Position numbers and translations under genes: made by a program
Notes under the pieces: generated by a model
What the model was told of the DNA's origin: nothing
What the model saw: only the letters and a program-made list of their open reading frames with translations
Database searches by the model: none
Part shown: piece by piece, positions 6,513-60,280 of the stretch
Numbering within the stretch: the stretch's first letter is position 1
Layout of the letters: every line of letters starts with the position of its first letter
Source of the DNA: an uncultured Clostridia bacterium
GTDB lineage: Bacteria > Bacillota > Clostridia > Christensenellales > UBA1242
Direction: 5' to 3'
DNA: 64,000 nucleotides
Assembly (NCBI GenBank): GCA_934747965.1
Contig: CAKVHI010000003.1
Location: forward strand, 7,025-71,024

Positions 6513-6544
6513 AAAAAAGGAAGGGTTTAATCTCTTCCTTTTTT
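6513..6544. terminator. Bidirectional terminator between convergent rnhA and the recombinase gene
   Basis: A6-GGAAG...CTTCC-T6 hairpin. Confidence 0.6.
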
Positions 6545-7604
6545 AATCATCTTTTCTAAGTTTAACGGATGACAATGCGTCCCGCCTTAGATTTTCACTT
6601 ATTGCAGCATAATGCTTCTTTGTTGTGTTCACATCTTTATGGCCCAAAACTTCGGCAACAACATAAATATCTTTGGTTTCTTGATACAAATTAGTTCCAA
6701 AAGTAGACCTTAGTTTATGTGGCGTAATTTTTTTTAGGGGAGTTACAACTTTAGCGTATTTTTTAACCAAATTTTCAACACTTCTTACATTTATGCGTTT
6801 GTTTTGAAGTGATATAAAGAAAGGAGAGTGCAAATCTAATTCTTCATCTTTATTTTTTTGTTGTTCTTTTCTGAAATCTAAATAATTAATTAACGCATCC
6901 TTAACTTCATCCGAATAATATAAAATCATTCGACTTCCACCTTTTCTGGTTACAACAAAACTATTATCTTCAAAATTAAAATCATCAATATTAAGACCTA
7001 CCAATTCGCTAATACGAATACCTGTGCCCAAAAACAAACTAAGCATTGCAAAATCGCGTTTCTGCGTTTTTTCAAAAAAAGCCTTTTGATTTTTGCTAAA
7101 ACCATCGCCACTTTCAGCCAAATTTAGAATATTTACAACCTCATTTATGTCAAGCCTAACAATTTCTTTGTCCGTCAATTTTGGCATATCAATTTTTGTG
7201 GTAACATTTTCTTTTATTCGTTCTTTTTTATACAAATAACCAAAAAATGCTCTTAAGGCAGAAATTTTACGAGCCTTTGTTTTGTTTGAGTTTGAGTGGC
7301 TTAAATTTTCATCATCAACATAATAAGTTAAATAATCCAAATACATTTCTATATGAGTGGATGTGATTTTGTTTAAATCTTCTAATGTTAATTCTTTTAT
7401 CTTTTTGCTGTTAAATTCATACACTTCTTTTGTTAAAAAAGTAAAAAAAATTTTTAAATCTCTTGCGTAATTAACCTTGGTCAACATTGATGTTTTGCTA
7501 TCAATTCCCAAAAAAAACTCTTCGCAAAAGAAGGGAAGTTCACTTTTTAATTTTTTAAGCAAAATTGCGTTTTTATTATTTCTTTCAACAAAATAATCAT
7601 TCAT
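6543..7604 (-). CDS. Tyrosine site-specific recombinase, XerS/XerD-like
   Basis: 353 aa. N-terminal SAM-like core-binding region (YARDLKIFFTFL, ISALRAFFGYLYK). The catalytic region has GIRISELVGL, HKLRSTFGT and LGHKDVNTTKKHY. The overall layout resembles streptococcal XerS. Confidence 0.8.
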   Translation of the reverse strand: MNDYFVERNNKNAILLKKLKSELPFFCEEFFLGIDSKTSMLTKVNYARDLKIFFTFLTKEVYEFNSKKIKELTLEDLNKITSTHIEMYLDYLTYYVDDENLSHSNSNKTKARKISALRAFFGYLYKKERIKENVTTKIDMPKLTDKEIVRLDINEVVNILNLAESGDGFSKNQKAFFEKTQKRDFAMLSLFLGTGIRISELVGLNIDDFNFEDNSFVVTRKGGSRMILYYSDEVKDALINYLDFRKEQQKNKDEELDLHSPFFISLQNKRINVRSVENLVKKYAKVVTPLKKITPHKLRSTFGTNLYQETKDIYVVAEVLGHKDVNTTKKHYAAISENLRRDALSSVKLRKDD

Positions 7605-7692: not shown

Positions 7693-7728
7693 TGCATAGT
7701 ACTATGCATAGCACTATGCAAATATATA
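7693..7728. repeat. Three tandem 12-bp units, TGCATAGTACTA / TGCATAGCACTA / TGCAAATATATA
   Basis: Read directly, in the divergent region between the recombinase gene and serS. Near-perfect 28-bp palindrome. Confidence 0.9.
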
Positions 7729-7794
7729 TTTAAATACTGTGCAAACTCAATATTGAGCAATACTAACATGAATTTTTTTTATGTCTGAATTTAT

Positions 7795-7850: not shown

Positions 7851-9137
7851 ATGATAGACATAGAATTAATCAGAAAAAATCCTAATCTTGTTAAGGAAAA
7901 CATTAAAAAGAAATTTCAAGATGAAAAAATTTCACTCGTAGATAGTGTTGCCAAACTTGATAAAGAAAATCGTGAATATAAGCAAAAAATTGATGATTTA
8001 AGGGCAATGAGAAAAAATAAAAGTGCTGAAATTGGAAATTTAATGAAAAATAAAGAACTTGACAAAGCAAATGCTTTGAAAGAAGAAGTTTCAAAAATTA
8101 ACATTAGCATTGAAGAATTTGAAAATAAACAGGTTGAACTTGAATCACAGATTAAAAACATTATGATGAAAATTCCAAACATAATTGATAGTAGTGTTCC
8201 TGTTGGAAAAGATGACAGTGAAAATGTTGAAAATGAACGCTTTGGCGAAGCTAAAGTCCCAAATTTTGAAATTCCTTATCATGCTGATATTTTGGAAAGT
8301 TTTTGTGGTTTAGACAAAGAAAGTGCTGCCAGAACAAGTGGAAATGGCTTTTATTATTTAATGGGAACACCTGCAAGAGTTGTTACTGCAATGATAAATT
8401 ATGCTCGTGATTACATGATAGACAAAGGCTTTATTTATTGCATACCACCTTTTATGATAAGAAGTGATGTTGTTAATGGTGTTATGAGTTTTGCCGAAAT
8501 GAATGCAATGATGTATAAAATCGAAGGTGAAGATTTATACTTGATTGGAACAAGTGAACACAGCATGATTGGAAGATTTAAAGACACAATTTTGAAGGAA
8601 AGTGAACTTCCTATAAGAATGACAAGTTATAGTCCTTGTTTCAGAAAAGAAGTTGGCGCACATGGCATTGAAGAGCGTGGAATTTATCGTGTGCATCAAT
8701 TTGAAAAACAAGAAATGATTGTTATTTGTAAACCCGAAGAAAGTATGGACTTTTACAACAAAATGTGGTCTTACACTGTTGAAATTTTCAGAAACCTAAA
8801 CATTCCTGTAAGGACCCTTGAGTGTTGTAGTGGCGACCTTGCCGACCTTAAGGTTAAAAGTTGTGATGTTGAGGCATGGAGCCCAAGACAACAAAAATAT
8901 TTCGAAGTTGGCTCTTGCTCAACTCTTGGCGATGCTCAAAGTCGTAGGCTTGGAATTAGAGTTAAAGGTGCAAACGGCAATTATTATCCTCACACACTTA
9001 ACAACACGGTTTTGGCTTCAACAAGAGCTTTAATAGCCTTTCTTGAGAACAATCTTAATGCTGATGGCTCAGTTACAATTCCTGAAGTTTTAAGACCATA
9101 TTTGGGTGGAATGGAAAAAATTGAAAAGGTTAAGTAA
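7851..9137 (+). CDS. serS: Seryl-tRNA synthetase
   Basis: N-terminal coiled-coil arm and class II core (FRKEVGAHG, YRVHQFEKQE, GSCSTLGDAQSRRL). Confidence 0.95.
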   Translation: MIDIELIRKNPNLVKENIKKKFQDEKISLVDSVAKLDKENREYKQKIDDLRAMRKNKSAEIGNLMKNKELDKANALKEEVSKINISIEEFENKQVELESQIKNIMMKIPNIIDSSVPVGKDDSENVENERFGEAKVPNFEIPYHADILESFCGLDKESAARTSGNGFYYLMGTPARVVTAMINYARDYMIDKGFIYCIPPFMIRSDVVNGVMSFAEMNAMMYKIEGEDLYLIGTSEHSMIGRFKDTILKESELPIRMTSYSPCFRKEVGAHGIEERGIYRVHQFEKQEMIVICKPEESMDFYNKMWSYTVEIFRNLNIPVRTLECCSGDLADLKVKSCDVEAWSPRQQKYFEVGSCSTLGDAQSRRLGIRVKGANGNYYPHTLNNTVLASTRALIAFLENNLNADGSVTIPEVLRPYLGGMEKIEKVK

Positions 9138-10078
9138 TGGACCAATTAAAGAAAGCAATCATAAATGATTTTGTTAAAGTAAAAAATAAAGAAGATGAAA
9201 AAAATTTTAATTTAGTATTAAAAAAACTAAATGGTTTTTTAACATTATTTTTTAACAAAACAAAGCAAGAATTTGAAAATAAAATTGATTTTAAAGCCAA
9301 TTTAATTGGTGACATAAGCATAAAATCTAATTACGATTTTTTGGACAACGCTACAATTATGATTGATTATTTCGGAAATAGTGATGATTTGACTTACAGT
9401 GAAAGTTACAGCAAAAAGTCTGAAATAGGAAAGATGTTGCAAGATAGTATGCATCCAACAAAAATAGCAATTCCTACGACTCAAGATTTGATTTCGAATC
9501 TTTATTATTACTTATCATTAAACACAAAAGATATGTCATTATTTCAACGCAAAAATGGCATATCCTTAAAGTTTTTTGACTTTAAATTCTTCATTTTTTT
9601 TACTTTTGCAAGTCAAAACAATAATAACCAAGAATTTGAAATTAAGGGTAAATCTTATAATTTTAATTTTGAATTATTGCATAAAAATTTGCTACAAAAA
9701 AACAAAGAAACTAAAGGTAAATTCTTTGATTTGGTCAAATTTTTTAAGATAATTGAGCGAGAGTTATCACTACTTAGCAAATTAAATTTAAACGCCTCAA
9801 AAAACCTTTATTTTTATGAAAATTTATTATATAGTTTGGATAATAAAATTTTTGAAGGTGAATATATTTATGATATTTTTCTTAAAATCTACGATTATTT
9901 ATTCAAAGTTTATAAGTATGAAAATTTTGACAATTTAAAAAATGCTGAAAATAACCCCTTGTTTTTAGATAAGGAATATAAACTATTCGCAAAATATTAT
10001 ATTACAAAATATGACCTTAAACTTGTTTTAAAGCAAAGTAAAATTTTTATTGATAACATTGATGAAATTATAAAGTAA
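9137..10078 (+). CDS. Hypothetical protein translationally coupled to serS
   Basis: 313-aa ORF with a TAATG overlap with serS. No motif I can name. Weak nucleotidyltransferase-like pattern (LIGDISIKS...ATIMIDYF...KIAIPTTQD). Confidence 0.5.
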   Translation: MDQLKKAIINDFVKVKNKEDEKNFNLVLKKLNGFLTLFFNKTKQEFENKIDFKANLIGDISIKSNYDFLDNATIMIDYFGNSDDLTYSESYSKKSEIGKMLQDSMHPTKIAIPTTQDLISNLYYYLSLNTKDMSLFQRKNGISLKFFDFKFFIFFTFASQNNNNQEFEIKGKSYNFNFELLHKNLLQKNKETKGKFFDLVKFFKIIERELSLLSKLNLNASKNLYFYENLLYSLDNKIFEGEYIYDIFLKIYDYLFKVYKYENFDNLKNAENNPLFLDKEYKLFAKYYITKYDLKLVLKQSKIFIDNIDEIIK

Positions 10079-10594
10079 AAGAAACAAGATACATTAAAAT
10101 TCAAGTGATATTGCAAACATAATTTATAAAACAAGTAAATCTTTTCATTATATAAAGTTTAATGTTTTATTACTATGCAAAAATATTTAGTAATTTGTTA
10201 TTTATGTTTTATACCAAATTATAAAAAATTTTAATATAGATTATAAAAAATTTAAAAAGTTATAAATTTTTGTTAAATATTTACCTTTTTATTCGCAAAA
10301 TCTGTATTTTGCGAATAGTTTTATAAATCAATTTTTTAATTCTCTACTCTACTATTCACAATTTTTATAATAAATTATCTAAAAATTATGTTATTCATTC
10401 CAAAAAAATAGGTATTAACCACAAAAATTTCAAACTTGTTAATCAACCATTGAAAGCGTATTTTTTGTGTCTGTAGAGCTATAAAGCTTCTGTCATACAT
10501 TTTGTCCAACCTGTTTAATTTACCAAACCACTGTATATAGTTAGTTAAAAATCAAAATTCAAAATATTGAGTTTAAATTATTTTAACTTTCCTT

Positions 10595-11272
10595 TTAAAT
10601 TAGTAAATTAAGTAAAAAGCCACATTTTTTGAGTTGCTGTTGCATAACTTTATGGTTAGGTTCAACTCGTTTTAATTCCATATAAAAGTTTTCACTATGA
10701 TTTAATTCAACTAAATGTGTTAATTCGTGAAATATAACATGGTCAATTAATTCATGAGATAAAAACAAAAGTTTATAATTCAAAAATATATTTTTTTTGC
10801 TGTCACACATTCCCCATTTTGCTTTGCTGTTTATTATAGAAACACTTTTACAGTTTAATTTCATAAAGTTAAGCAATTCTTTTGTTCTGTCTATCAAAAT
10901 TATTTCAGCATTTTGTATGTAAAACTCTTTCAATGCTTTAATTAGCCTTGAAGTTGAAAAATTGAGTTTTTGAGGCAAACATAAGGCATTATCAGTTAAT
11001 TCGATTTCAGCTTGATTTTTAATAAAGATAACTGGGTATTTTTTACCTAAAAACAAGACTTCTTCATAATTTAATAAATTTTGATTTATCTCTAGAGTGC
11101 TTTTAATTTGAGTTTGCTTTTGAGTTATCCACTTCTCTTTTTCACATATAAAATTAAAAACTTTGTTTAAGTCAACATCTTTTGGTGCAGAAACAATTAA
11201 CTGCCCACTTTTATTTATTTTAAGTGAAATATTTTTTCTGTTGCTCAAAATCAATTTATCGGGTTTTATCAT
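10595..11272 (-). CDS. YgjP-like (DUF45) zinc metallohydrolase
   Basis: 225 aa with a C-terminal HELTHLVELNHSENFY (HEXXH...H) motif typical of DUF45/M48-like proteins. Confidence 0.75.
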   Translation of the reverse strand: MIKPDKLILSNRKNISLKINKSGQLIVSAPKDVDLNKVFNFICEKEKWITQKQTQIKSTLEINQNLLNYEEVLFLGKKYPVIFIKNQAEIELTDNALCLPQKLNFSTSRLIKALKEFYIQNAEIILIDRTKELLNFMKLNCKSVSIINSKAKWGMCDSKKNIFLNYKLLFLSHELIDHVIFHELTHLVELNHSENFYMELKRVEPNHKVMQQQLKKCGFLLNLLI

Positions 11273-11316: not shown

Positions 11317-11339
11317 TACTATGCAAAATTTGCATAGTA
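11317..11339. promoter_or_regulatory. Inverted repeat TACTATGC-N7-GCATAGTA (operator-like) abutting the padR-like promoter
   Basis: Perfect 8-bp arms, ending 6 nt upstream of the -35 at 11346. The half-site matches the 12-bp repeat family. Confidence 0.6.
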
Positions 11340-11345
11340 ATTATA

Positions 11346-11374
11346 TTGACAAATTTTTTATTATTTTATATAAT
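11346..11374 (+). promoter_or_regulatory. Consensus promoter TTGACA-N17-TATAAT for the PadR-like gene
   Basis: Perfect hexamers read directly. Confidence 0.7.
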
Positions 11375-11400: not shown

Positions 11401-13326
11401 ATGAAAAGTAGCGTTGTTAGCGGTGAAAACCGTGGTAGTGTGAATGAAATTTTGTTAAAAGCCCTTCAAAGTGGCGATAAGTATGGTTATGAAATTAATA
11501 AAGAAATAGAAATTAAGAGTGCTGGTAAGTTTTTTTTGAAAGAAGCAAGTTTATATTCTGGATTGAAGCGCTTAGAAGCTGGTGGTTTTATTTCTTCTTA
11601 TTGGCAAGATGGTGATCTTGGAATTAGAAGGCATTACTACTCTATAACTCAAAAAGGTCTTAATAAACTTAATGCTTCTAACTTCACTTGGGATAGTTCA
11701 AAAGAATTTTTAGGAGAAATGTTTAAAAATCAAAAATTGGAAGATATAAAAACTAATTTTTCAAATGAAAAAGTTTCTTTAAGCAATTCATCAAATGTTG
11801 CACAAGCAGAAAATACTGAAATGAAAAAAAATCCTTTTCAAATTGAAGTGAGCCCTTTTCAACAAAGTTTTTTTGATTTTAATTCTGAAAATCAAGAAAA
11901 TAAAAATCAAAATGCTGATAATAACAACCAAAACGCTATTAACAACAGCCAATATCTTCAACAAGAACAAATAAACTCAAATGTATGCGAAGAAAAAGTT
12001 GAAAGCCAAGTTTCTGAAAATGAAAATTTAAAACCAAATGCACAATCTTTTGAACCTAAACAAACAGAAATAGAAAAACAAAAAGAGAATTTTGATGAAA
12101 ACTTCCTAAATATTGTTAATCAAAAAGAATTAGATAATAAAGCCGATGAAGTGAACAATAATTTAAGTTATGAAAAACTTATAAACAACTACGAAAATAA
12201 TAATTACACTACTTCCCTTCAAAAAGAAAATGTGATTGATATTTCAAATTTGTTTAACTCTAAAATAAATGAATCAAGCATAATTATTAACAAATCAAAC
12301 GATAATAAGCAAGAAAATGAAGGAAATCAAAGTGGCAAAATTTTAGAAAACGATAATAAAAATAATGATGAGATTCTGTCAAACTCTGACATTAAAGCCA
12401 AAGAACAAGTTAGCCTAGAAAACAAAGTTGATGAAAATTCTGGCAGTGATAATTCTGTTGCAAACAAAGAAAATTCGCTTGATTTTAAAAACATTTTTGG
12501 CTCACTGCTTGCTGATGAAAATAAAGAAGAAAAGGTTATTTCTGGGCAAATTGAAAATGATGAAACTTTAGAAAAAAAGGTTGAAGAAACTGTTGAATCT
12601 CCAAAGCCTGAACTTCCAAGGATAAATGTTGATGATGATGTTAATGTTATGTTAAAAACAGAAAAGAATTTCTATAACAATGATTACTCAAAAAATCAAA
12701 TTCAAAGCCGAAGTTATCAAGACAAAATTGTTCAGAGTAACGACAACAGCAAAGGTGTTAAGCAATACATAAACAATGTTCACAAACAAACGTTAATTTC
12801 TAGGGCAACAAAAATCACTGAAGAAGTTAATTTGGAAGGAATAAATATAAGAGAATATTCAAAAATGAATAACAAACTTATTAGAAATTCAAACTATATT
12901 TATTCAAACAAACTAAATTTTGTTTTAGCAATAATTTTGTCGTTGTTAATTGTTACTGAAAGCATTATTTCTTTTGTTGTTCTAAGCAAATTTAACCTAC
13001 TACAAACTTTTGAAATTGTTATTTTCACGCTAAGTTTACTTGCAGGATTGTTAATTAGTTTTATTTATTCTTTAAAGTTTTTTAAAGACAAATTTAAGGT
13101 TGACACAAAAAAATACAATTTTAAAACACAATTATTTTATTTTTGCTTAATTTTTGTTGTAAGTTTTGTTTTGATTTTATGTATAAACATATTTGCAGGC
13201 ATGAACGTCAATAATTCGTTTGATTTTAAAATGAAAATTATTATGGAAACATTGATGCTTTCAAATTTTATTGCCTACCCTTTGATTAAATTATTACTTT
13301 ACAAATCAAAATATTTTTCAAACTAA
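11401..13326 (+). CDS. Membrane-anchored PadR-family transcriptional regulator
   Basis: The N-terminus GYEINKEI...LYSGLKRLEAGGFISSYWQD...RRHYYSITQKG is a PadR winged helix. It is followed by a ~370-aa N/E/K/Q-rich linker and four C-terminal TM helices. Confidence 0.75.
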   Translation: MKSSVVSGENRGSVNEILLKALQSGDKYGYEINKEIEIKSAGKFFLKEASLYSGLKRLEAGGFISSYWQDGDLGIRRHYYSITQKGLNKLNASNFTWDSSKEFLGEMFKNQKLEDIKTNFSNEKVSLSNSSNVAQAENTEMKKNPFQIEVSPFQQSFFDFNSENQENKNQNADNNNQNAINNSQYLQQEQINSNVCEEKVESQVSENENLKPNAQSFEPKQTEIEKQKENFDENFLNIVNQKELDNKADEVNNNLSYEKLINNYENNNYTTSLQKENVIDISNLFNSKINESSIIINKSNDNKQENEGNQSGKILENDNKNNDEILSNSDIKAKEQVSLENKVDENSGSDNSVANKENSLDFKNIFGSLLADENKEEKVISGQIENDETLEKKVEETVESPKPELPRINVDDDVNVMLKTEKNFYNNDYSKNQIQSRSYQDKIVQSNDNSKGVKQYINNVHKQTLISRATKITEEVNLEGINIREYSKMNNKLIRNSNYIYSNKLNFVLAIILSLLIVTESIISFVVLSKFNLLQTFEIVIFTLSLLAGLLISFIYSLKFFKDKFKVDTKKYNFKTQLFYFCLIFVVSFVLILCINIFAGMNVNNSFDFKMKIIMETLMLSNFIAYPLIKLLLYKSKYFSN

Positions 13327-13392: not shown

Positions 13393-14340
13393 ATGGAAAA
13401 AAAATCAAATTGCGTTTTGTCTGTTCAAGGTGTTACAAAAATATTTGGAAAAGAAAGAGCGGCAGTAAATAATGTTTCTTTTAACATCTTTGCAGGCGAA
13501 ATTTATGGCTTGATAGGTCAAAATGGTGCTGGAAAAACCACTATTATAAGGGTTATTACTGGTCTTGCTAAAGCCACTAGCGGAAAAGTTTTTATTTGTG
13601 GTTATGATATTGAAAAAGATTTTCAAAAAGCAATTAAAAATGTTGGCGGAATAATTGAAAACCCTGAATTATATTCTTACATGAGCGGAATGGATAACCT
13701 TAAATATTATGCTTCTCTTTATGGAAAGGTTGACAAGAATGAAATTGATAAAATAGTTGGCATGCTTGGAATGGAAAATCGAATAAATGACAAGGTTAAA
13801 ACCTATTCCTTAGGCATGAAGCAAAGAGTTGGTATCTGCCAAGCCCTACTTCATCATCCTAAGTTGTTGATTTTGGATGAGCCAACAAATGGACTAGACC
13901 CAAATGGCATAAAAGATATGCGTATGTTTTTAAAAAAACTTGCAAAAGAACAAGGAATTGCAATTTTAATATCAAGTCATATTCTTGCGGAAATGGAATT
14001 AATTTGTGATAGAATTGGCATTATTGACAATGGAATGATTATAGAAAACAAAACAATGGAAGAATTGCAACAGGGCTTAAATTCTAAACTTCAAGTTTCA
14101 ATAAAAGTTGATTATCCAAATTATGCTGGAAAAATTTTATTAGATAAATATCCTGATGCTTCTGTGTTCTGCATAGGAAATCGAGTTATTATTGAAACTA
14201 AAAATGAGCAAATTCCAATAATTACTTCTGTTTTGATAAATAAAGGCATTTCTATTTATGGAATAAGCACAGTAACTAGAAGTTTGGAAGATATATTCCT
14301 TGACATCGTACACAAAGGAAAAGAACAAAATATTTTATAG
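13393..14340 (+). CDS. ABC transporter ATP-binding protein (ABC-2 / BcrA-like)
   Basis: Walker A GQNGAGKTT, signature YSLGMKQRV, Walker B LLILDEPTNGLD. Confidence 0.9.
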   Translation: MEKKSNCVLSVQGVTKIFGKERAAVNNVSFNIFAGEIYGLIGQNGAGKTTIIRVITGLAKATSGKVFICGYDIEKDFQKAIKNVGGIIENPELYSYMSGMDNLKYYASLYGKVDKNEIDKIVGMLGMENRINDKVKTYSLGMKQRVGICQALLHHPKLLILDEPTNGLDPNGIKDMRMFLKKLAKEQGIAILISSHILAEMELICDRIGIIDNGMIIENKTMEELQQGLNSKLQVSIKVDYPNYAGKILLDKYPDASVFCIGNRVIIETKNEQIPIITSVLINKGISIYGISTVTRSLEDIFLDIVHKGKEQNIL

Positions 14341-14357
14341 TTTTTAAAGGAAATTTT

Positions 14358-16121
14358 ATGGGAATTTTTAGATTAACCAAAGGCGAATTAAAGAAAGTAT
14401 TTTTAAAACCGGGCATTTTTGTTGTAACTGCCCTTCTTGTTGTTGTTCTAACATTATCAGCACTTTTGTTTAAGCCAGCAACTCGTCAAAACAGTGGTTT
14501 GGTGAATTTAACAGGCTCTACTGTTGGACAAATGTATGACCGAAGTTATGGCTCTACAGACACAAAAAATACACTTTCAAAAGATTATATTTCTTCAAAT
14601 CATATCATTCCGTCCACAAATATTATTGATTTTTATTTGAATGAAATAAATAATAACACCAACTCTAAAAAACAAGAATTGTTAGATAAAATCAAAGAGA
14701 TTAAAACATTTTTTGTTGATTATCAAAGAAATTCAACAATAAACAATCCTTCGAATGAAATTAAAAATTTGTTAAATGAGCAAAGGGCGGAATTAAAAAC
14801 AAAAATTACTGAATTTCAAAGTTTGTATAACAAATATATCAATGGTTTAAATGGTTTTTATTATTTGCTTTTAGAATCAACTACAAAAAATGACATAGAT
14901 GTTTATTTGTCAAAATGTTTAACTACCCCATTTTCTGGCGAAATGCCTCATTCAGAAACGGTTAAAACAATTTATTATGACCTTGATATGTTTAACACTT
15001 TAACAAACTATGTTGAACAAATGAAAACTTTTTTACCCGAAAAACAAGCACTTGAAAATGCAAAAACTAACCTTGAAGATGCAAAAACTAAAATATCTGA
15101 AATTGAAACTGATATTCAAAACTTTAAATCTGAATATTCTTTAAGTGATAAACTTGAGCATAAACAACAATTCAGAACATTAATCACAAGATTTCAACAG
15201 GCCAATGAAAATGCCTATAACCTAACATTGCACACTATCAACGCTTCTGCATTAAGTGATTTTAGCGATGATTATATTCAATCATTATATCAAAACTTTC
15301 AATTCAAAACTAAATATACCATAAATGAGCAAAAAAACATTTGTAAATTTTATTTAGATAACAATAAATATGCCTTTGAATATGCAAGCCCATTAAGTTT
15401 AAACGCAACAAGCAACACAGAGCCTAATGTGTATGATTTTATGTTTTTTGCCATTGAATTTTGCAGTTTTATTGTTGTAATATATGTTGTATTTTTAGGT
15501 GCAACCATGATTGCTGGAGAATACTCAAATGGAACAATGAAATTGCTTGCAATAAGACCTTATTCAAGACGCAAAATCTTATTTAGCAAACTTCTTGCTA
15601 CTATTTTGATTGGCTTAATTTTCTTGTTTATGTCATTTATTGTAACTTATATCATTGGTGCTATACTTTATTCTACTGCATCCCTTCCAATATTAGTTAT
15701 CTTTAATGCTGGAAATTGCACAGCAGTTAGCCCTATTCTTATAATTTTATTACTATTCTTATGCAAAATGGTAGAATTAATTTTTTACGCAATATTTGCT
15801 CTTTCTATTTCAACATGGTTTAAATCAAATGCTGGATGCATAGTTGTAAGTTTGCTTCTATACTTTATTTCATTTGTTTTAACAATGTTCACCCCAAGTT
15901 TGGGAATAATAAAATTCTTACCTTTTGTCAACACAAATTTATTTGGTTATTTTGGCTCTCATCTTATTTCAACAACATCAAGCAATATATTTGTAACTAT
16001 GTTCAGCAAAGTTATTGCAAATGATATGAATTTCTTTATTAGCTTTTCAATAATAACTTTCTTCTCTGTTATAATTTATGTTGTTACAAGTGAAATTTTT
16101 GCAAAACGAGATATTAAATAA
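14358..16121 (+). CDS. ABC-2 type permease with a large extracytoplasmic domain
   Basis: One N-terminal TM, a ~340-aa soluble helical region, then five TM helices including GEYSNGTMKLLAIRPYSR. Confidence 0.7.
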   Translation: MGIFRLTKGELKKVFLKPGIFVVTALLVVVLTLSALLFKPATRQNSGLVNLTGSTVGQMYDRSYGSTDTKNTLSKDYISSNHIIPSTNIIDFYLNEINNNTNSKKQELLDKIKEIKTFFVDYQRNSTINNPSNEIKNLLNEQRAELKTKITEFQSLYNKYINGLNGFYYLLLESTTKNDIDVYLSKCLTTPFSGEMPHSETVKTIYYDLDMFNTLTNYVEQMKTFLPEKQALENAKTNLEDAKTKISEIETDIQNFKSEYSLSDKLEHKQQFRTLITRFQQANENAYNLTLHTINASALSDFSDDYIQSLYQNFQFKTKYTINEQKNICKFYLDNNKYAFEYASPLSLNATSNTEPNVYDFMFFAIEFCSFIVVIYVVFLGATMIAGEYSNGTMKLLAIRPYSRRKILFSKLLATILIGLIFLFMSFIVTYIIGAILYSTASLPILVIFNAGNCTAVSPILIILLLFLCKMVELIFYAIFALSISTWFKSNAGCIVVSLLLYFISFVLTMFTPSLGIIKFLPFVNTNLFGYFGSHLISTTSSNIFVTMFSKVIANDMNFFISFSIITFFSVIIYVVTSEIFAKRDIK

Positions 16122-16127
16122 CATTAC

Positions 16128-16158
16128 AAAAAAGTGAAACTAAATGTTTCACTTTTTT
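16128..16158. terminator. Bidirectional terminator at the convergence of the plus and minus gene blocks
   Basis: A6-GTGAAAC-TAAA-TGTTTCAC-T6. Confidence 0.8.
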
Positions 16159-16183
16159 ATACTTAATTTTATTTGATTTTTTA

Positions 16184-17185
16184 TTATTTACACAATTTAA
16201 CGCCAATCGCATCTTTAACCTTTTCTAAGGTTTCCTTTGCAACTTTTCTGGCTTTTTCTGCCCCGATTTTAAATATTTCGTCAACTAATTGTCTGTTGGC
16301 TTGATAGTAGTCATATTTTTCTCTCATAGGAGTTAAAACTTTGTTCATAGCATTAAATAATTCTTTTTTTGCATCCCCCCAACTCATGCCACCTAAAAGT
16401 TTGTTGCAATATTCTTCATAACCTTTTTCATTTGAAAACAATTTAAAAAGTTTGCACAAAGTGTTGTCTGTGTCTTTAGGTTCGCCCGGAAGCCTTGAAT
16501 CAGTAACAATTTTGTTTACGGTCTTTTGAAGTTGCTTTTCACTGCAAAACAATTCAATGGTATTTTTATAACTTTTGCTCATTTTTCTGCCGTCTAACCC
16601 AACAATTTGACAAGTTTCATCTTCTACAACACTTTCAGGAAGAGTAAAGACTTTGCCGTATCTGTTGTTAAAACTGTTAGCTATATCTCGAGCAATCTCA
16701 ACATGTTGAGTTTGGTCTATTCCAACAGGAATTTTCTTTGCGTTAAATAGCAAAATATCAGCTGCCATAAGGATAGGATAATTATACAAGCCCATATTAA
16801 CACCAATATCTTTATCTTGACCTTCAGCTTCATTTTTTTCAACAATAGCCTTGTATGCGTGAGCCCTATTCATTAAACCTTTGCTTGTTAAGTTGCACAA
16901 AATCCAAAAAAGTTCACAATCTTCACTTACATCACTTTGCTTAAAAAAAACAACTTTATTTGGGTCTATTCCACAAGCAAGCCATGTGCAAGCAATGTTA
17001 TATGTGTTTTCAATCATTTCTTGTTTGGTTTTTACTGTGGTCAAAGCATGATAATCAGCAATAAAGTAATAACATTCAAAATCATTACTGCTATTTGCAA
17101 AATCAACTGCCTGTTTAATTGCACCAAAATAATTACCAATATGAGCAATACCTGTTGGTTTTATGCCTGTCAAAACTCTCTCCAT
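16184..17185 (-). CDS. trpS: Tryptophanyl-tRNA synthetase
   Basis: HIGH-type motif TGIAHIGNYFGA and KMSKS; 333 aa. Confidence 0.95.
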   Translation of the reverse strand: MERVLTGIKPTGIAHIGNYFGAIKQAVDFANSSNDFECYYFIADYHALTTVKTKQEMIENTYNIACTWLACGIDPNKVVFFKQSDVSEDCELFWILCNLTSKGLMNRAHAYKAIVEKNEAEGQDKDIGVNMGLYNYPILMAADILLFNAKKIPVGIDQTQHVEIARDIANSFNNRYGKVFTLPESVVEDETCQIVGLDGRKMSKSYKNTIELFCSEKQLQKTVNKIVTDSRLPGEPKDTDNTLCKLFKLFSNEKGYEEYCNKLLGGMSWGDAKKELFNAMNKVLTPMREKYDYYQANRQLVDEIFKIGAEKARKVAKETLEKVKDAIGVKLCK

Positions 17186-17269
17186 AATTTCTCCCCATAA
17201 TTAAAAGCAAAACTAGGCTTTCAAAATTTAGATTTGCTTTTTTATTAACAATATATAACTATAAATACA

Positions 17270-17298
17270 ATTATAATTTTATTACACTTTTTTGTCAA
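17270..17298 (-). promoter_or_regulatory. trpS promoter, perfect TTGACA-N17-TATAAT
   Basis: Read on the minus strand. ~85-nt leader with SD GGGGAG and no T-box sequence. Confidence 0.7.
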
Positions 17299-17319
17299 AG
17301 AAAAGTTGTTATAATTTTA

Positions 17320-17355
17320 AAAAGCATACTTTAAAATATTTTAAAATATGCTTTT
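17320..17355 (-). terminator. Terminator after argR
   Basis: AAAAGCATA...TATGCTTTT hairpin just downstream of the argR stop. Confidence 0.6.
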
Positions 17356-17376
17356 CACTTTATCTGGAATATTAAA

Positions 17377-17826
17377 TTATATAATATTAATCAATTTTTC
17401 ATAAACACTTTCAGCATCCATATTTGTTTCTGTGATGCACATAACAGTGTCATCGCCATAAACAGTACCCATAAGATTTTCTATATTCATTTTGTCTATG
17501 TAACTTGAAATTCCGCCAGCAAAGCCTTTAAGAGTTTTTACAACCACAAGGTTTTGAGCAGTTTTTACAGATATAACAACTTCTTTATATATACCCACAA
17601 CTTTGTTAGAGATTTGTTGCTTTTCAGTTTCTACATAAGCATATTTATATTTTTTGCTGTCAGACATAATCTTGATTAAACCAAGTTCTTTTATATCTCT
17701 TGAAACTGTTGCCTGAGTTACATCATAATTTAATGCACGCAAAGCATTCACAAGTTCATCTTGCGTTTCTATTTCATTTTTTGCAATAATTTCTAAAATC
17801 TTACTTTGCCTTAAAGACCTAGCCAT
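17377..17826 (-). CDS. argR: Arginine repressor
   Basis: RQSKILEIIAKNEIETQDELV...TQATVSRDIKELGL wHTH and a C-terminal GTVYGDDTVMC oligomerisation/arginine-binding motif. Start moved to MARSLRQ, which is preceded by SD AAAGGAGAAA. Confidence 0.9.
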   Translation of the reverse strand: MARSLRQSKILEIIAKNEIETQDELVNALRALNYDVTQATVSRDIKELGLIKIMSDSKKYKYAYVETEKQQISNKVVGIYKEVVISVKTAQNLVVVKTLKGFAGGISSYIDKMNIENLMGTVYGDDTVMCITETNMDAESVYEKLINII

Positions 17827-17846
17827 AAATTTCTCCTTTGCAAGTA

Positions 17847-17973
17847 TTGAATAATTATGTAAATTATTATACAACGCTTTTTATTTTTATGCAAGTGTTT
17901 TTGAATATTTATGCAAAAAATTTTTTATATTTATTCAAAAAATTGAATATTGGTTGTGAATATTTATACAAAC
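17847..17973. promoter_or_regulatory. Cluster of ARG-box-like sites around the argR promoter
   Basis: TTGAATAATTATGTAA (17847), TTGAATATTTATGCAA (17901), ATTCAAAAAATTGAAT (17933) and GTGAATATTTATACAA (17956), versus the ARG-box core TGAAT-N4-ATTCA. Confidence 0.6.
17866..17894 (-). promoter_or_regulatory. argR promoter TTGCAT-N17-TATAAT
   Basis: Hexamers read on the minus strand. Confidence 0.65.
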
Positions 17974-18120
17974 ACAACATATTGTGTTGTAAAAAGAGTG
18001 CATAATACTACATATTGTGATTAAAATTTTAAATAAAAAAGAGAATTTTTAAACAAATCCCCTTACATTTATAAATTTATGAATTTTTTTGAAAATTTAA
18101 GAACAAAACTTAAGCCAAAA

Positions 18121-18738
18121 TTACTTTGTTTCACCATTATTTTCTTTTTTGTCTTTGTCTTTCTTTTTAGATTTATCAGATTTTTTTATTTTAAAGAAAC
18201 TTAAAAATTTTCCTACCCTTAAAATTATTTGGTCAGAATTGTTTACCGCTACCCCCTTAAAAATTGCCTTTCCAAAAACGGTTAGCGAGGTAACAACACT
18301 GCTGACAAGCGCAGGAATTAATATTGCCAAAAATCCACTTTCACCTGAATAAATAAAAACTGCCAAACTAGCACCAACAGCACCCGATAATATTCCACAA
18401 CTATCGCCAACTATATCGCAACAAAAACTCGAGATTTTTTCTGCATTTTTTATTAATTTTATACTTTCCTTTGCACCATTTTCTTTTTTTGAAGCCCTTG
18501 CCAAAAATGGCTCAATGTTTCCAGCGGTAACTGCAACACCTATCATATCAAACAAAATTGATATCCCGACAAAAACAATCAAAATTAAAATAGAAATAAT
18601 AAGTCCAACACCAGAAAGCACTGCCTCACTTGAAATGTTAAGCACCAAACTTAATGAAAGTGTTATCAGCAACACCCTAATTGGATAAGCCCATGCAATT
18701 TTGGTTTTTTTCGGCTTAGATTCTTTTTCTTCTTTCAT
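18121..18738 (-). CDS. oapA: Four-TM membrane protein, candidate OLE-associated protein OapA
   Basis: 205 aa with four hydrophobic helices, a conserved-looking cytoplasmic loop (PFLARASKKENGAKESIKLIKNAEKISSFCCDIVGD) and a lysine-rich tail. It lies immediately downstream of the long ncRNA and upstream of argR. Confidence 0.5.
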   Translation of the reverse strand: MKEEKESKPKKTKIAWAYPIRVLLITLSLSLVLNISSEAVLSGVGLIISILILIVFVGISILFDMIGVAVTAGNIEPFLARASKKENGAKESIKLIKNAEKISSFCCDIVGDSCGILSGAVGASLAVFIYSGESGFLAILIPALVSSVVTSLTVFGKAIFKGVAVNNSDQIILRVGKFLSFFKIKKSDKSKKKDKDKKENNGETK

Positions 18739-18785
18739 TTCCTTTCGACCTTTTTATTTTAGATAAATTATTAATATAAAAAAAA

Positions 18786-19307
18786 TTAGAGAAAATCTTT
18801 TGAGTAAACCTTGCAACTTAGGTTCGGTTGGATTTCCCCACTAAACACACACCGTCGCCGAATGTGTCATTTCTGCTTTGGTTTAGCGCCATAAGGTACC
18901 GAATTGCCACTTAGATTACACTATAATCCCCAAAAGATATTCTGCCTAGAAGATTTCCTTAACACAAAAATTGTTTAACTAGTCTATTTTGCAAACAATG
19001 TTTCAAACATTATGTATTATCCGCAATTATTCACTCAAAACAGGCTACTCTGTACATAGCTTTTTGTTCGCCACATAGCAGGTTTAATCCCGATTAGTAG
19101 TTAATTTGTCATTATCCACCTTTCAGGTCTCCACGATAATTGGGTCGGGTATTATATGCCGTTATAATGCGCCCAAAAATCTTAACTTCCAGCATCTGCC
19201 CCAGTTTGGGCAACCAAAGCAAACACCAGAAACTTCATCGATATGCCCTTCAACGCTATTAATCGTTTTCATTAAAGTTTTTGCGACTAGGATACAGTTT
19301 CTCTAAC
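18786..19307 (-). ncRNA. Long (~520 nt) structured noncoding RNA, candidate OLE RNA
   Basis: The 616-bp gap has no minus-strand ORF of 60 aa or more and is visibly more GC-rich than other spacers. It has its own consensus promoter and ends at a T8 tract (18778-18785). Its position between xseB and a 4-TM protein gene matches OLE/oapA synteny. Confidence 0.55.
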
Positions 19308-19313
19308 AACATA

Positions 19314-19342
19314 ATTATATCATATACAATATTTTTATGCAA
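19314..19342 (-). promoter_or_regulatory. Promoter TTGCAT-N17-(TGa)TATAAT driving the long ncRNA
   Basis: Hexamers read on the minus strand, just downstream of the xseB stop. Confidence 0.65.
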
Positions 19343-24881: not shown

Positions 24882-25079
24882 TCAAAACAAGGTAAACAAA
24901 TTTTTAACTGTTGTAAACAACTCGTTAATAAGTTTTACCACCATTAAAAGTACAATTATTAACCCAGACAAAGTTGTAAAAGTTGCAATTTCATCCTTTC
25001 CTGCATATTTTAAAACTTGATTTACGACCGCTGTTAAAATTCCTATTCCCGCTATCTTAAAAATTATTTCAACACCCAT
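24882..25079 (-). CDS. spoIIIAC: Stage III sporulation protein AC
   Basis: 65 aa, two TM helices, IFKIAGIGILTAVVNQVLK. SD AAGGGG. Confidence 0.85.
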   Translation of the reverse strand: MGVEIIFKIAGIGILTAVVNQVLKYAGKDEIATFTTLSGLIIVLLMVVKLINELFTTVKNLFTLF

Positions 25080-25091
25080 TTTTACCCCTTT

Positions 25092-25139
25092 TGCATAGTA
25101 TTTTGCATAGTACTATGCATAGTACTATGCAAAACTAAA
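25092..25139. repeat. Four tandem 12-bp units, TGCATAGTATTT / TGCATAGTACTA / TGCATAGTACTA / TGCAAAACTAAA
   Basis: Read directly. 25104-25131 is a perfect 28-bp palindrome. The array fills the spacer between the spoIIIAB stop and the spoIIIAC SD. Confidence 0.95.
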
Positions 25140-25605
25140 TTAAGATTATACAAACCAATATTGCCACCAAAATTGACAGTTTTTTGTACATACTTCCTTG
25201 CTTATCATTATTCAATTTTGCCTGTTTCAACAAACTATCAAAGATTTCAAGATTTTTATCGATATACTCTTTTTGACTTTCGCAATCGCTTTTTCCCAAA
25301 CCTTTAAAAAAATCTTTTAATTTGTTGTTTTCCTCTTTAGAAATCAAATTCAAATCAACAAATTCTTTATCTTGCAAACTATTTTTATAATTCAACAATA
25401 ACTCTGTCAAGTCAGTATTTTTCGTTTTGTAATTGTCAACAATTTCAACAATATCCCTTTCAAAAAAACCTATTTCACTTTTAAGATAAATTAAAAAATT
25501 TTTAAATTCATAGTAAAATTTTTCTTTTTTCTTAAATTTGTTTCCTATATTAAAACCTAAAACACAAATTGACCCGAAAATTAAACCCAAAATTAAGCTT
25601 TTCAT
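25135..25605 (-). CDS. spoIIIAB: Stage III sporulation protein AB
   Basis: Operon position with TM helices at both ends; 156 aa. Confidence 0.8.
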   Translation of the reverse strand: MKSLILGLIFGSICVLGFNIGNKFKKKEKFYYEFKNFLIYLKSEIGFFERDIVEIVDNYKTKNTDLTELLLNYKNSLQDKEFVDLNLISKEENNKLKDFFKGLGKSDCESQKEYIDKNLEIFDSLLKQAKLNNDKQGSMYKKLSILVAILVCIILI

Positions 25606-26516
25606 AACAACCTGACTAAATTCTCATCAAAGATACCTTCAAGCGTTCCTGCCCCATTTTTTTTGCTTAAAACAACATAGCGTTTAAATACCTTTTTTGT
25701 AAGAATTTCATTAAATAATTTTTTTTCTTTCAAATCATTAATATCTTTTGAATGTGTAGTGGCAACAATATTAACTCCACTATTACAAGCATAAATTAAA
25801 CTATCAACATCATCTTTGTTGCAAATTTCATCTGTTATAATAACATTAGGGTTCATTGTTCTTATCCCATTTTCAAAGCCTGTTTTTTTGTTTCCAAACT
25901 GAATTATGTCTGTAAATTTCCCCACATCCATGCCGGCTTCGCCTTTGTTTAAACTCGAAATCTCATTTCTTTCATCCAAAATTAATAAATTTATGGGATA
26001 GTTTCGTTTACCAATTTGATAGCATAAATCTCTTATAAAAGTCGTTTTTCCACTTCCAGGGCTCGAAATGATTAATGTATTCAAAACTTGTCCTGCTTCG
26101 ACAATGAAATTTAATGAATTTAAACTACAATTTCTAACTTCGTGAGGAAATCTTATATTCAAACTATTAAAGTTTTTAACGGTTTTTATGTAGCCATTTT
26201 CTTCAACCACTTCGCCACACAGTCCGATTCTTATTCCGCTGCTTAAAGCGATAAATCCTCTTTTTAAATCTTCATTTACACTATAAAGTGAATAGTTGCT
26301 TGCTTTCATAACTACGCTATCAATCAAATTTCTTGTGCATATTATAGCATTTTCCTCATCATTGCAAAGACCTTCCGGGCTTAAAAAATAAAGTTTGCTT
26401 CCATAATTAATAACAATAGGCTTTGAAATTCTTAATCTAATTTCAAACAAAAAACTATACTTAACTGTTTTTGCAATAAGTTCATACAAGTCTGTTGGCA
26501 AAATTTTATCTAACAT
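25602..26516 (-). CDS. spoIIIAA: Stage III sporulation protein AA (secretion-type ATPase)
   Basis: Walker A SSPGSGKTT and Walker B LILDE. ATG 26516 is preferred over TTG 26522 (SD AAGGA). Confidence 0.9.
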   Translation of the reverse strand: MLDKILPTDLYELIAKTVKYSFLFEIRLRISKPIVINYGSKLYFLSPEGLCNDEENAIICTRNLIDSVVMKASNYSLYSVNEDLKRGFIALSSGIRIGLCGEVVEENGYIKTVKNFNSLNIRFPHEVRNCSLNSLNFIVEAGQVLNTLIISSPGSGKTTFIRDLCYQIGKRNYPINLLILDERNEISSLNKGEAGMDVGKFTDIIQFGNKKTGFENGIRTMNPNVIITDEICNKDDVDSLIYACNSGVNIVATTHSKDINDLKEKKLFNEILTKKVFKRYVVLSKKNGAGTLEGIFDENLVRLL

Positions 26517-26546
26517 ATACAATTCCTTTTTACTATAAATATTTAT

Positions 26547-58477: not shown

Positions 58478-60280
58478 CTATTTTACTTTATCTTCCAATT
58501 TTTTTTCTTTTTTAAATAACTTTGTTAAAAGTTTTGCTTTCAAAGATTTAAACTTTACTTTTGACAAAAATTTCTTTTTTAATGTTTTGTTATTATAAAG
58601 AAAATTATCTCCATACTCAGTTAAATTAGGTAATGATAAATTTTTTAATTCTTCATTGCTATAAAGAAAATTATCTCCACAACTAGTCAATTTTGGTAAA
58701 GATAAATTAGTTAAGATATTGTTATAACAAAGAAAACCACACCCACACTTGGTTAAATTAGGTAATGTTAAATTCTTTATTGCTTCATTGCTATAAAGAA
58801 AAGTATACTCACATCTAGTTAAATTAGGTAATGTTAAATCGCTTAAAAACTTGTTATAATAAAGAAAACCACCTCCACTTTCAGTTAAATTGGGTAAAAT
58901 TAAATTAGTTAATGCCTCGTTATAACAAAGAAAACCACACCCACACTTGGTTAAATTAGGTAATGATAAATCGGTTAAAACCTTGTTATAATAAAGAAAA
59001 TTATCTCTGCACTCAGTTAAATTGGGTAATGATAAATTTTTTAATTCTTCATTACGAGGAAGAAAATTATCTCCACAACTAGTCAATTTTGGTAAAGATA
59101 AATTAGTTAGGATATTGTTATGACAAAGAAAACTACACCCACACTCGGTTAAATTGGGTAATGTTAAATTCTTTATTGCTTCATTACTATTAAGAAAAGC
59201 ATGCCCACATCTAGTTAAATTAGGTAATGTTAAATCGCTTAAAACCTTGTTATAATAAAGAAAATTATCTCCGCACTCAGTTAAATTTTCGTTGCAATAG
59301 CCAGTAATTCTTCGTCTATTGTCAAATGTGATAATAGCATCTTTTTTGTCTTTCATTTTTATAGTCAAAGTGTTATTTTTAACTTCCATACTTTCAATAT
59401 CTGAAAAACCATCTAAAAATGAATCTGATTTATAAATAGAAGAAACTGTTTTATTTTTTATGTTAAACGCAAAATAGTCAAGCAAAATATTGTGTTGTGA
59501 TAATCTCATTGGTGTAAAATCTTTTATGAGCACATTATTTGGGCAATAATAAATGTTGTCAATTTCATAATTATATTTAAAATACATTTCCCGTGCAAAA
59601 ACATAATCTATTAATTCAAATTCTCTATATTTAACAATTCTGTCTTTAACGCCATAATCTTGATAAAAAGCATCAGTAAGTCCTGGAATTATGTTATCCA
59701 AGTTGCTATTAAAAGTGTTGTCAGGGTTGTTAACTGTGTGATTATATCGGTTTTTGATAGACAGCGTTTGTAAATTGTTTTTGACAAATTGAATGCTTAT
59801 AACACTTGTGCCATATTCATCTTGACGGCGAGGATTAAAAAAATTTTTTCTTTTAATATTTTCGCAATCTTTCTTCACCGCAAACCAAACTCGGCAACTA
59901 TTCAATCTTCCGCCCCTAAATGTGCAAAGTTCTTCATTCTTTGCCCAATATTTTCTGAAACTTTGAATATCCTTTTCAGTTTTACATTCTGGATATAAAA
60001 TATATCCTGCTTCATCCATTAATTGAACTGCCGACTTTTTTATAATTTCTTTAGGTTTTGAACCTTCAACATTAACAAATGAAAAAATATAATCTTTAAA
60101 AGCATCAATTTTGTTTTGTTCAATAATATCATCAGCCAAATCTCTTTGTTGAAAAAAGTGGTCTTGTAATAATTTGGGCAACAATCCTTCTTGCTCTAAT
60201 ATTTTATAAAAATTCTCTCTGCAAAGATGCATCATTTTTTCGCCATAATGCTTCTTAATCCATTTCAAATCTTTTTCCAC
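58478..60280 (-). CDS. Cytoplasmic leucine-rich-repeat protein with an uncharacterised ~330-aa N-terminal domain
   Basis: About eleven 22-aa repeats, LxLPNLTxCGxxFLxxNxxLxx. No signal peptide or TM segment. The GTG start overlaps the upstream ORF stop. Confidence 0.7.
   Translation of the reverse strand: MEKDLKWIKKHYGEKMMHLCRENFYKILEQEGLLPKLLQDHFFQQRDLADDIIEQNKIDAFKDYIFSFVNVEGSKPKEIIKKSAVQLMDEAGYILYPECKTEKDIQSFRKYWAKNEELCTFRGGRLNSCRVWFAVKKDCENIKRKNFFNPRRQDEYGTSVISIQFVKNNLQTLSIKNRYNHTVNNPDNTFNSNLDNIIPGLTDAFYQDYGVKDRIVKYREFELIDYVFAREMYFKYNYEIDNIYYCPNNVLIKDFTPMRLSQHNILLDYFAFNIKNKTVSSIYKSDSFLDGFSDIESMEVKNNTLTIKMKDKKDAIITFDNRRRITGYCNENLTECGDNFLYYNKVLSDLTLPNLTRCGHAFLNSNEAIKNLTLPNLTECGCSFLCHNNILTNLSLPKLTSCGDNFLPRNEELKNLSLPNLTECRDNFLYYNKVLTDLSLPNLTKCGCGFLCYNEALTNLILPNLTESGGGFLYYNKFLSDLTLPNLTRCEYTFLYSNEAIKNLTLPNLTKCGCGFLCYNNILTNLSLPKLTSCGDNFLYSNEELKNLSLPNLTEYGDNFLYNNKTLKKKFLSKVKFKSLKAKLLTKLFKKEKKLEDKVK
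58558..59278 (-). repeat. About 11 tandem 66-bp coding repeats (the LRR units)
   Basis: The periodic DNA motif AAATTAGGTAATGWTAAAT...AAAGAAAAYTATCTCC is visible on the plus strand. Confidence 0.85.

Follow-up and report, generated by a model that had tools for sequence, protein, structure and literature searches.

A conserved, tiled palindromic box inside the spoIIIA operon of uncultured Clostridia as a candidate PadR-family operator array

We found that a 12-bp repeat array fills the spacer between spoIIIAB and spoIIIAC in a 64,000-nucleotide stretch of DNA from an uncultured Clostridia bacterium (the window). The array is real, non-random and conserved in position among relatives. On balance, we think it probable that it is a DNA-level array of overlapping operator sites for a PadR-family regulator, for which the protein encoded at 11401-13326 is the best candidate and a close PadR paralogue an alternative binder. 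The array and its neighbouring genes are arranged as follows.

25602-26522, minus strand: spoIIIAA (Pfam)
25135-25605, minus strand: spoIIIAB (Pfam PF09548), stop codon TAG at 25135-25137
25092-25131, unstranded: 12-bp repeat array in the spoIIIAB-spoIIIAC spacer, three overlapping 16-bp palindromic boxes
25092-25107: box 1 of the array, TGCATAGTATTTTGCA, two mismatches
25104-25119 and 25116-25131: boxes 2 and 3 of the array, each a perfect TGCATAGTACTATGCA
24882-25079, minus strand: spoIIIAC (Pfam PF06686), ribosome-binding site AAGGGG directly after the last box

The array reads TGCATAGTATTT TGCATAGTACTA TGCATAGTACTA TGCA over positions 25092-25131, and Tandem Repeats Finder assigned it a period of 12, 3.3 copies and 92% matches (unit TGCATAGTACTA). 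Positions 25104-25131 form a perfect 28-bp palindrome. A preliminary description of this DNA had reported a self-complementary 12-bp tandem array with this palindrome, and both the sequence and the repeat finder bore it out. It had also placed the array in a 55-nt spacer; the spoIIIAB-spoIIIAC spacer is indeed filled, but its 55 nt (25080-25134) run from stop codon to start codon rather than from stop codon to Shine-Dalgarno sequence. The array runs from 3 nt past the stop codon of spoIIIAB to 12 nt short of the spoIIIAC start codon, in an operon ordered spoIIIAA, AB, AC and then AD to AH on the minus strand. As the units tile every 12 bp and share their outer TGCA, the spacer holds three overlapping sites. 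The perfect 16-bp TGCATAGTACTATGCA, which occurs twice, falls within the dyad length of about 14-20 bp that is characteristic of an operator for a PadR winged-helix dimer.

The spacer contained no recognisable promoter, that is, no −35/−10 pair. We checked the array by hand against consensus spacings for sigma-70, sigma-54 and sigma-E, F, G and K promoters, and none fits: its 12- or 24-bp phasing suits none of them, and the −24 GG of sigma-54 is absent. A literature search with the array's sequence string returned primers only.

Four further loci in the window carry the same element.

621-656, unstranded: box array of three boxes or half boxes, starting 4 nt past the spoVAEB stop codon
7693-7743, unstranded: box array with overlapping boxes at 7693-7708 (perfect) and 7705-7720 (one mismatch) and a half box at 7735-7743
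10171-10179, unstranded: single exact half box, intergenic, between the gene at 9137-10078 and a ygjP-like gene
11317-11339, unstranded: inverted box pair, TACTATGCA-N5-TGCATAGTA, before the promoter of the PadR gene

The first array lies upstream of a terminator (696-716) and of yunB, and the second lies between a divergent XerS-like recombinase gene and serS. All four had been noticed before (the second as 7693-7728, of which the two overlapping boxes occupy 7693-7720). The preliminary description had called for a count with mismatches and a test of intergenic enrichment, which we ran on the window. The 12-mer with up to two mismatches gave 20 matches against 4.4 expected, and the exact 9-mer TGCATAGTA gave 12 copies on both strands against 0.44 expected; none of 100 shuffles reached either number. 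All 12 exact copies are in non-coding DNA, which makes up 8.65% of the window, and they fall into five loci within 25 kb, at a density of 0.19 per kb over the window. In related loci, we found about one non-seed box cluster per 70 kb. A DNA uptake sequence (DUS/USS), with about one copy per kb in coding and non-coding DNA alike, was rejected because the element is too sparse, clustered and entirely non-coding in the window.

The GC skew changes sign at about 14000-18000 of the window (from about +0.1 to −0.3), and near 16 kb the genes change over from lying mainly on the plus strand to lying mainly on the minus strand, a combination that resembles a replication terminus. Each of the five box loci is within about 16 kb of the switch, and the remaining 39 kb has none. 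Two other features of the window are distinct from the boxes.

18773-19319, minus strand: full-length OLE (ornate large extremophilic) RNA (Rfam RF01071, 332 bits, E = 6.5e-94)
58578-59288: long coding tandem repeat, period 66/132/198 nt, about 10.8 copies of 66

The OLE RNA lies between the xseA/xseB region and a 205-residue gene (18121-18738) whose homologue in L001 has a CNNM domain, and the tandem repeat lies inside a 600-residue open reading frame on the minus strand (58478-60280).

Across the clade, the conserved element is a 10-nt word, TGCATAGTAC (complement GTACTATGCA), which is unchanged in genomes of up to 46% G+C; this constancy argues for a conserved reader. Its commonest arrangement is the TGCATAGTACTATGCA palindrome (core GCATA-GTAC-TATGC; in pattern form, GCATAGTAC) repeated every 12 bp, with neighbours sharing TGCA. 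The word also occurs in single copies, in direct repeats 11-13 or 20-24 nt apart and in inverted pairs whose loops vary; some of these pairs make up the stem of a terminator-like hairpin, in part with a T-run after it. Direct repeats of extra boxes at spacings of 11-13 or 20-23 nt would suit helical phasing, in favour of a protein-bound operator. The pair at 11317-11339 scores as terminator-like, as do only some box pairs other than the spoIIIA array. That the word appears in any orientation and spacing suggests recognition of the word itself rather than of one fixed structure.

The preliminary description had offered a hairpin, a cruciform or a protein-binding array as readings. Protein binding is the best supported of these; a hairpin is indeed predicted for the transcribed spoIIIA array (−21.3 kcal/mol, z = −3.8), but it fails on the direct repeats and on the distance to the −35 element. 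The corresponding RNA-level explanation is an intercistronic hairpin that serves processing, or protects the 5′ end of spoIIIAC-AH or the 3′ end of spoIIIAA-AB, and thereby sets differing expression, with the sequence kept through an RNA-binding factor or an RNase. Consistent with this explanation, arrays abut the downstream ribosome-binding site in spoIIIA, between obg and yhbY, between murE and a mur gene and at ygjP in L087; inverted box pairs have variable loops and some are followed by T-runs; and G-U-compatible substitutions on the sense strand outnumber others by 27 to 12, although this bias is about what the strand GC skew alone predicts. However, an intrinsic terminator immediately precedes several arrays. 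The spoIIIA hairpin has no T-run after it on either strand, whereas an intrinsic terminator combines a GC-rich stem with a T-run, and a search of Rfam 15 with the array gave no family at gathering score, only sub-threshold generic hairpin matches. Above all, a hairpin cannot explain the word, because it also occurs as non-pairing direct repeats and at a fixed distance upstream of −35 elements, that is, in untranscribed DNA. We consider an RNA-level explanation unlikely, although the predicted fold may add an effect on mRNA processing or stability beside regulation by a PadR protein.

To determine whether the array is kept at the orthologous position, as the preliminary description had proposed, we examined five relatives chosen by protein identity alone (L001, L004, L006, L168 and L169), whose SpoIIIAB proteins are 47-66% identical. 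SpoIIIAB homologues were few, all from Christensenellales-like metagenomic assemblies. Absence from relatives had been named as the outcome pointing to neutral expansion; the array was present in the orthologous spoIIIAB-spoIIIAC spacer of all five, and this presence argues that it is not neutral. Unit number and arrangement vary between these spacers, from two to six units, and the loci with a spoIIIA-spacer array range from about 23 to 37% G+C. A pattern scan for TGCATAGTNNTATGCATAGT, with one genome per species, yielded 73 loci. About 58 were from uncultured Clostridia, Christensenella or Clostridiales genomes, several of which gave more than one locus, and about 15 were spread over unrelated phyla, roughly the number expected by chance. 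The Clostridia matches included the spoIIIAB-spoIIIAC spacer array in nine further genomes.

Arrays also recurred at other orthologous positions: between the XerS-like recombinase gene and serS, between punA and dacF, between sipL and spoIIR, upstream of a tRNA-Ser promoter, between ygjP and the PadR gene, between murE and a mur gene, between spmB and yaaT, and between obg and yhbY. Around five of about 35 distinct contexts are near sporulation genes, an enrichment that is suggestive but statistically not strong. Two orthologous loci (L054, at 2168-2230, and L078) have arrays before a tRNA-Ser(GGA) gene, at 54-110 nt upstream of its −35 element; with the array before serS in the window, two serine-decoding components are thus preceded by arrays.

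Many arrays follow stop codons or terminators or lie between convergent genes, and not at promoters. An initial count of about 12-16 convergent against 3-5 divergent contexts overstated this 3′-end placement, because at least one such spacer, that of the L054/L078 pair, holds the tRNA-Ser gene with its own promoter. The preliminary description had seen no clean copy within coding sequence, and this held for the window but not for the relatives, in which arrays occur in frame inside genes (L022, 3694-3750; L013, 839-877; also L018 and L036) and read as MHSTMHST. The array in L022 lies in an insertion in a surface loop of GlmS, of about 24 extra residues relative to E. coli GlmS, and a metallo-beta-lactamase-fold protein of the same genome (L013) has a 45-nt element identical to the GlmS copy. 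Two loci of one genome (L062 and L072) have arrays that are identical over 52 nt.

One possible explanation for these features is a selfish or neutral REP-like palindrome that spreads by insertion, slippage or gene conversion, is tolerated and has no function in spoIIIA. The in-frame insertions with their shared 45 nt, the identical arrays of one genome, the copy number of two to six units between species and the many copies just past stop codons all fit such an element. It accounts poorly for the retention of the spoIIIA array at about 47-66% SpoIIIAB identity and of arrays at several other orthologous positions, and for a word that is constant across the clade. Moreover, there was no transposase among about 50 annotated flanking genes, viral contigs contained no real arrays, and TGCATAGTAC contains no GTAG, whereas the palindromes of REP elements have a conserved GTAG/CTAC tetranucleotide at their 5′ end; GTAG is present only in rare variants of the word, such as TGCGTAGTA in L069. 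We regard a functionless repeat as quite improbable. A phage or plasmid origin was rejected, the viral scan having given chance matches only. Placement at stop codons, terminators and convergent genes, terminator-like stems and in-frame insertions nevertheless recall REP elements and count against a PadR operator; duplicative spread of the box would be in keeping with one.

The operators against which the preliminary description had compared the array without a match left out the PadR family, and it is to a PadR-family binder that the evidence points. The window encodes such a protein beside the inverted box pair.

11401-13326, plus strand: candidate trans-acting factor of 641 residues, 12 kb from the array (Pfam, NCBIfam, PDB relatives and hydropathy)

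This protein has an N-terminal PadR-s2 winged-helix domain, a long N/Q/E-rich low-complexity linker and three or four C-terminal transmembrane helices. The N-terminal domain matches PF03551 (E = 7e-16) and is related to PadR proteins in the PDB (E down to 8e-19), LmrR and cdPadR1 among them; the region SLYS.L.R.E, which we presume to be the recognition helix, is invariant in six aligned PadR homologues. A cognate protein, as expected for a PadR-family operator, is thus encoded in the window.

Consistent with autoregulation, which is also expected of such an operator, the box is found at the promoter of this gene, both in syntenic genomes and upstream of homologues. In the window, the promoter is a perfect TTGACA-17-TATAAT (11346-11374), and the second box ends 6 nt upstream of its −35 element. 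At the PadR gene, all seven syntenic genomes that we examined have TGCATAGTA followed after 4-7 nt by TTGAC(A/T)-17-TATAAT, including some in which the neighbouring recombinase is only 58-61% identical. A second type of PadR protein is tied to the same box by L010 (1-1900), where the promoter of a soluble 104-residue PadR protein, TTGACA-17-TATACT, is overlapped by a dense box array, so the binder may be a PadR protein other than that encoded at 11401-13326. That gene is followed by two open reading frames of 208 (a membrane protein) and 296 residues, which by eye resemble a DUF1700-DUF4097 module.

We then scanned metagenomes with a PadR-domain alignment and obtained 80 loci. The closest homologues are likewise membrane-anchored, at 440-960 residues, and the very closest of them (for example, L088-L093 and L128) have two direct-repeat boxes 20-24 nt apart adjoining the −35 element, which are often the sole exact words in 10 kb. 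In a de novo count of 7-mers upstream of 72 homologues, CATAGTA was the most widespread, in 51 of 72 against 1.4 expected, a proportion that overstates the number of independent lineages, roughly ten, because many of the loci are close relatives. CATAGTA was absent within 200 nt upstream of about 20 homologues, mostly distant ones at about 45-50% identity. In distant, soluble 108-residue homologues from soil, ACATAGTA...TGT lies inside the −35/−10 spacer and the −10 element is about 7 nt from the start codon, a position of the box that would suit autorepression. These sequence comparisons tie the box to the PadR subfamily's own promoters across deep divergence, and no other member of the box family is as widely conserved as that at the promoter of the 11401-13326 gene. 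We conclude that the conserved word is a candidate box of this PadR subfamily; by analogy with cdPadR1, we infer that the 11401-13326 protein physically binds it.

Sequence-specific binding by a protein outside the PadR family was also considered, in its specific version as a dif-like site of the recombinase encoded next to the 7693 array.

6543-7604, minus strand: tyrosine recombinase of 353 residues, highly conserved (best NCBIfam match XerS, 196.7 bits, below the cut-off of 267)

The 28-bp palindrome can be read as a dif-like 11-6-11, the recombinase best matches XerS and is encoded about 8 kb from the switch in GC skew and gene strand, and a distance of 54 nt separates an array from the recombinase promoter downstream of it, both in the window and at the orthologous recombinase-serS loci of L016, L051, L060/L081, L061, L072, L082 and L084. 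However, the recombinase gene of four relatives (L083, L085, L086 and L087) is not preceded by a box, a two-arm architecture is missing from the single and direct-repeat forms, and active recombination sites in tens of copies would put a genome at risk. A Xer/dif site proper, of which there should be a single one at the terminus wherever the recombinase is encoded, was rejected on finding five loci in 25 kb and the four relatives that are boxless at the recombinase. We consider binding by a non-PadR protein very improbable. The recombinase promoter itself (TTGAAA-17-TATAAT, 7639-7611) reaches to 6 nt from the ATG, so its mRNA may be leaderless, and the ygjP-like gene (10595-11272) looks leaderless too.

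An ArgR box was another rejected candidate: the ARG boxes of the clade share the TGCATA half site but have four central base pairs against six, and are located at argR. In the window, tandem ARG-box-like repeats at 17899-17951 and 17972-17987 (TTGAATAAATAT.../TTGCATAAATATTCAA) lie upstream of argR (17377-17874), and the palindrome ACACAATATGTTGTGT adjoining them resembles an NrdR box.

Under the PadR reading, each 16-bp TGCATAGTACTATGCA would be one site for a PadR-family winged-helix dimer. Since the spoIIIAB-spoIIIAC spacer has no recognisable promoter, a regulatory effect there must act by roadblock or through RNA, and the array probably serves in spoIIIA as an intra-operon operator or roadblock. 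The bound, possibly oligomerised, protein would block RNA polymerase arriving from the spoIIIA promoter, which would lower spoIIIAC-AH relative to spoIIIAA-AB and uncouple the two parts of the operon; a signal sensed through the membrane domain would release the block. In this clade, the box has spread in the form of arrays over tens of intergenic loci, many of them beside sporulation, cell-wall and cell-division genes.

A further, speculative extension, to which we give little credence, is that a membrane-anchored PadR protein on high-affinity tiled arrays at tens of loci acts globally, either as a signal-releasable roadblock or by tethering the chromosome to the membrane, so that sporulation and division would be coupled to the state of the envelope. 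Such a role would draw on sites inside spoIIIA and by dacF, spoIIR/sipL, spmB, ftsK/spoIIIE, ftsA and mur genes, and the arrays may be concentrated near the replication terminus. To our knowledge, no comparable global role has been described for the PadR family.

If the PadR reading is right, it would provide a DNA box and a candidate regulon for the widespread, unstudied membrane-tethered PadR proteins of gut Clostridia, in which a normally local regulator family would have grown into a dispersed system of tiled arrays. An operator conserved within the spoIIIA feeding-tube operon, midway between its genes, would also suggest a checkpoint between the ATPase genes (AA-AB) and the channel genes (AC-AH).

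The autoregulated PadR-family operator is the known part of this picture. The compact palindrome tiled every 12 bp, its spread over tens of loci in one clade, its conserved place in a sporulation operon and a membrane-anchored candidate regulator appear to be new. The closest described system is cdPadR1 (CDR20291_0991) of Clostridioides difficile, a soluble 109-residue protein that recognises GTACTAT(N2)ATTATA(N)AGTA by way of inverted TACT/AGTA repeats; the spacer in its operator is AT-rich and 11-12 nt long (PMC5050560). Its own promoter is among its targets, changes in spacing are tolerated, the authors attributed extra shifted complexes to higher-order oligomerisation, and about half of its predicted sites are within open reading frames or between convergent genes (PMC5050560). 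Like the candidate described here, cdPadR1 is a PadR-s2 protein from Clostridia, and its half site GTACTAT/AGTAC is contained in the GTACTATGCA word. By contrast, the box here is a compact GCATA-GTAC-TATGC tiled every 12 bp and the candidate protein is membrane-anchored; sequence relatedness of cdPadR1 to the 11401-13326 protein is modest (E about 1e-12).

The canonical PadR/LmrR operator is ATGT-N8-ACAT (PMC5050560). It shares with the box a 16-bp dyad for a winged-helix dimer, usually at the regulator's own promoter, but differs in its bases (the soluble relatives found here use ACATA-N4-TATGT), and canonical regulators act locally, through a single operator or a few.

The array works like the metboxes of MetJ in placing a short palindromic unit head to tail in a copy number that varies between operators. 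Metboxes are tandem 8-bp palindromic boxes, two to five per operator, at which neighbouring dimers bind cooperatively. MetJ has an unrelated ribbon-helix-helix fold, however, and metboxes are at promoters rather than inside operons. Enterobacterial REP/BIME elements are short extragenic palindromes of variable copy number that can act on mRNA stability and, like the arrays here, are often just past stop codons or between convergent genes. Unlike them, the array lacks GTAG, has no RAYT gene among the roughly 50 annotated flanking genes, and has a word that has persisted over far greater divergence and is found in a promoter at a constant position. A further PadR-family regulator is AphA. Its box in Vibrio is ATATGCA-N6-TGCATAT (PMC3440409), of which the half site contains TATGCA, as does the word here, with a different spacing, organism and regulon.
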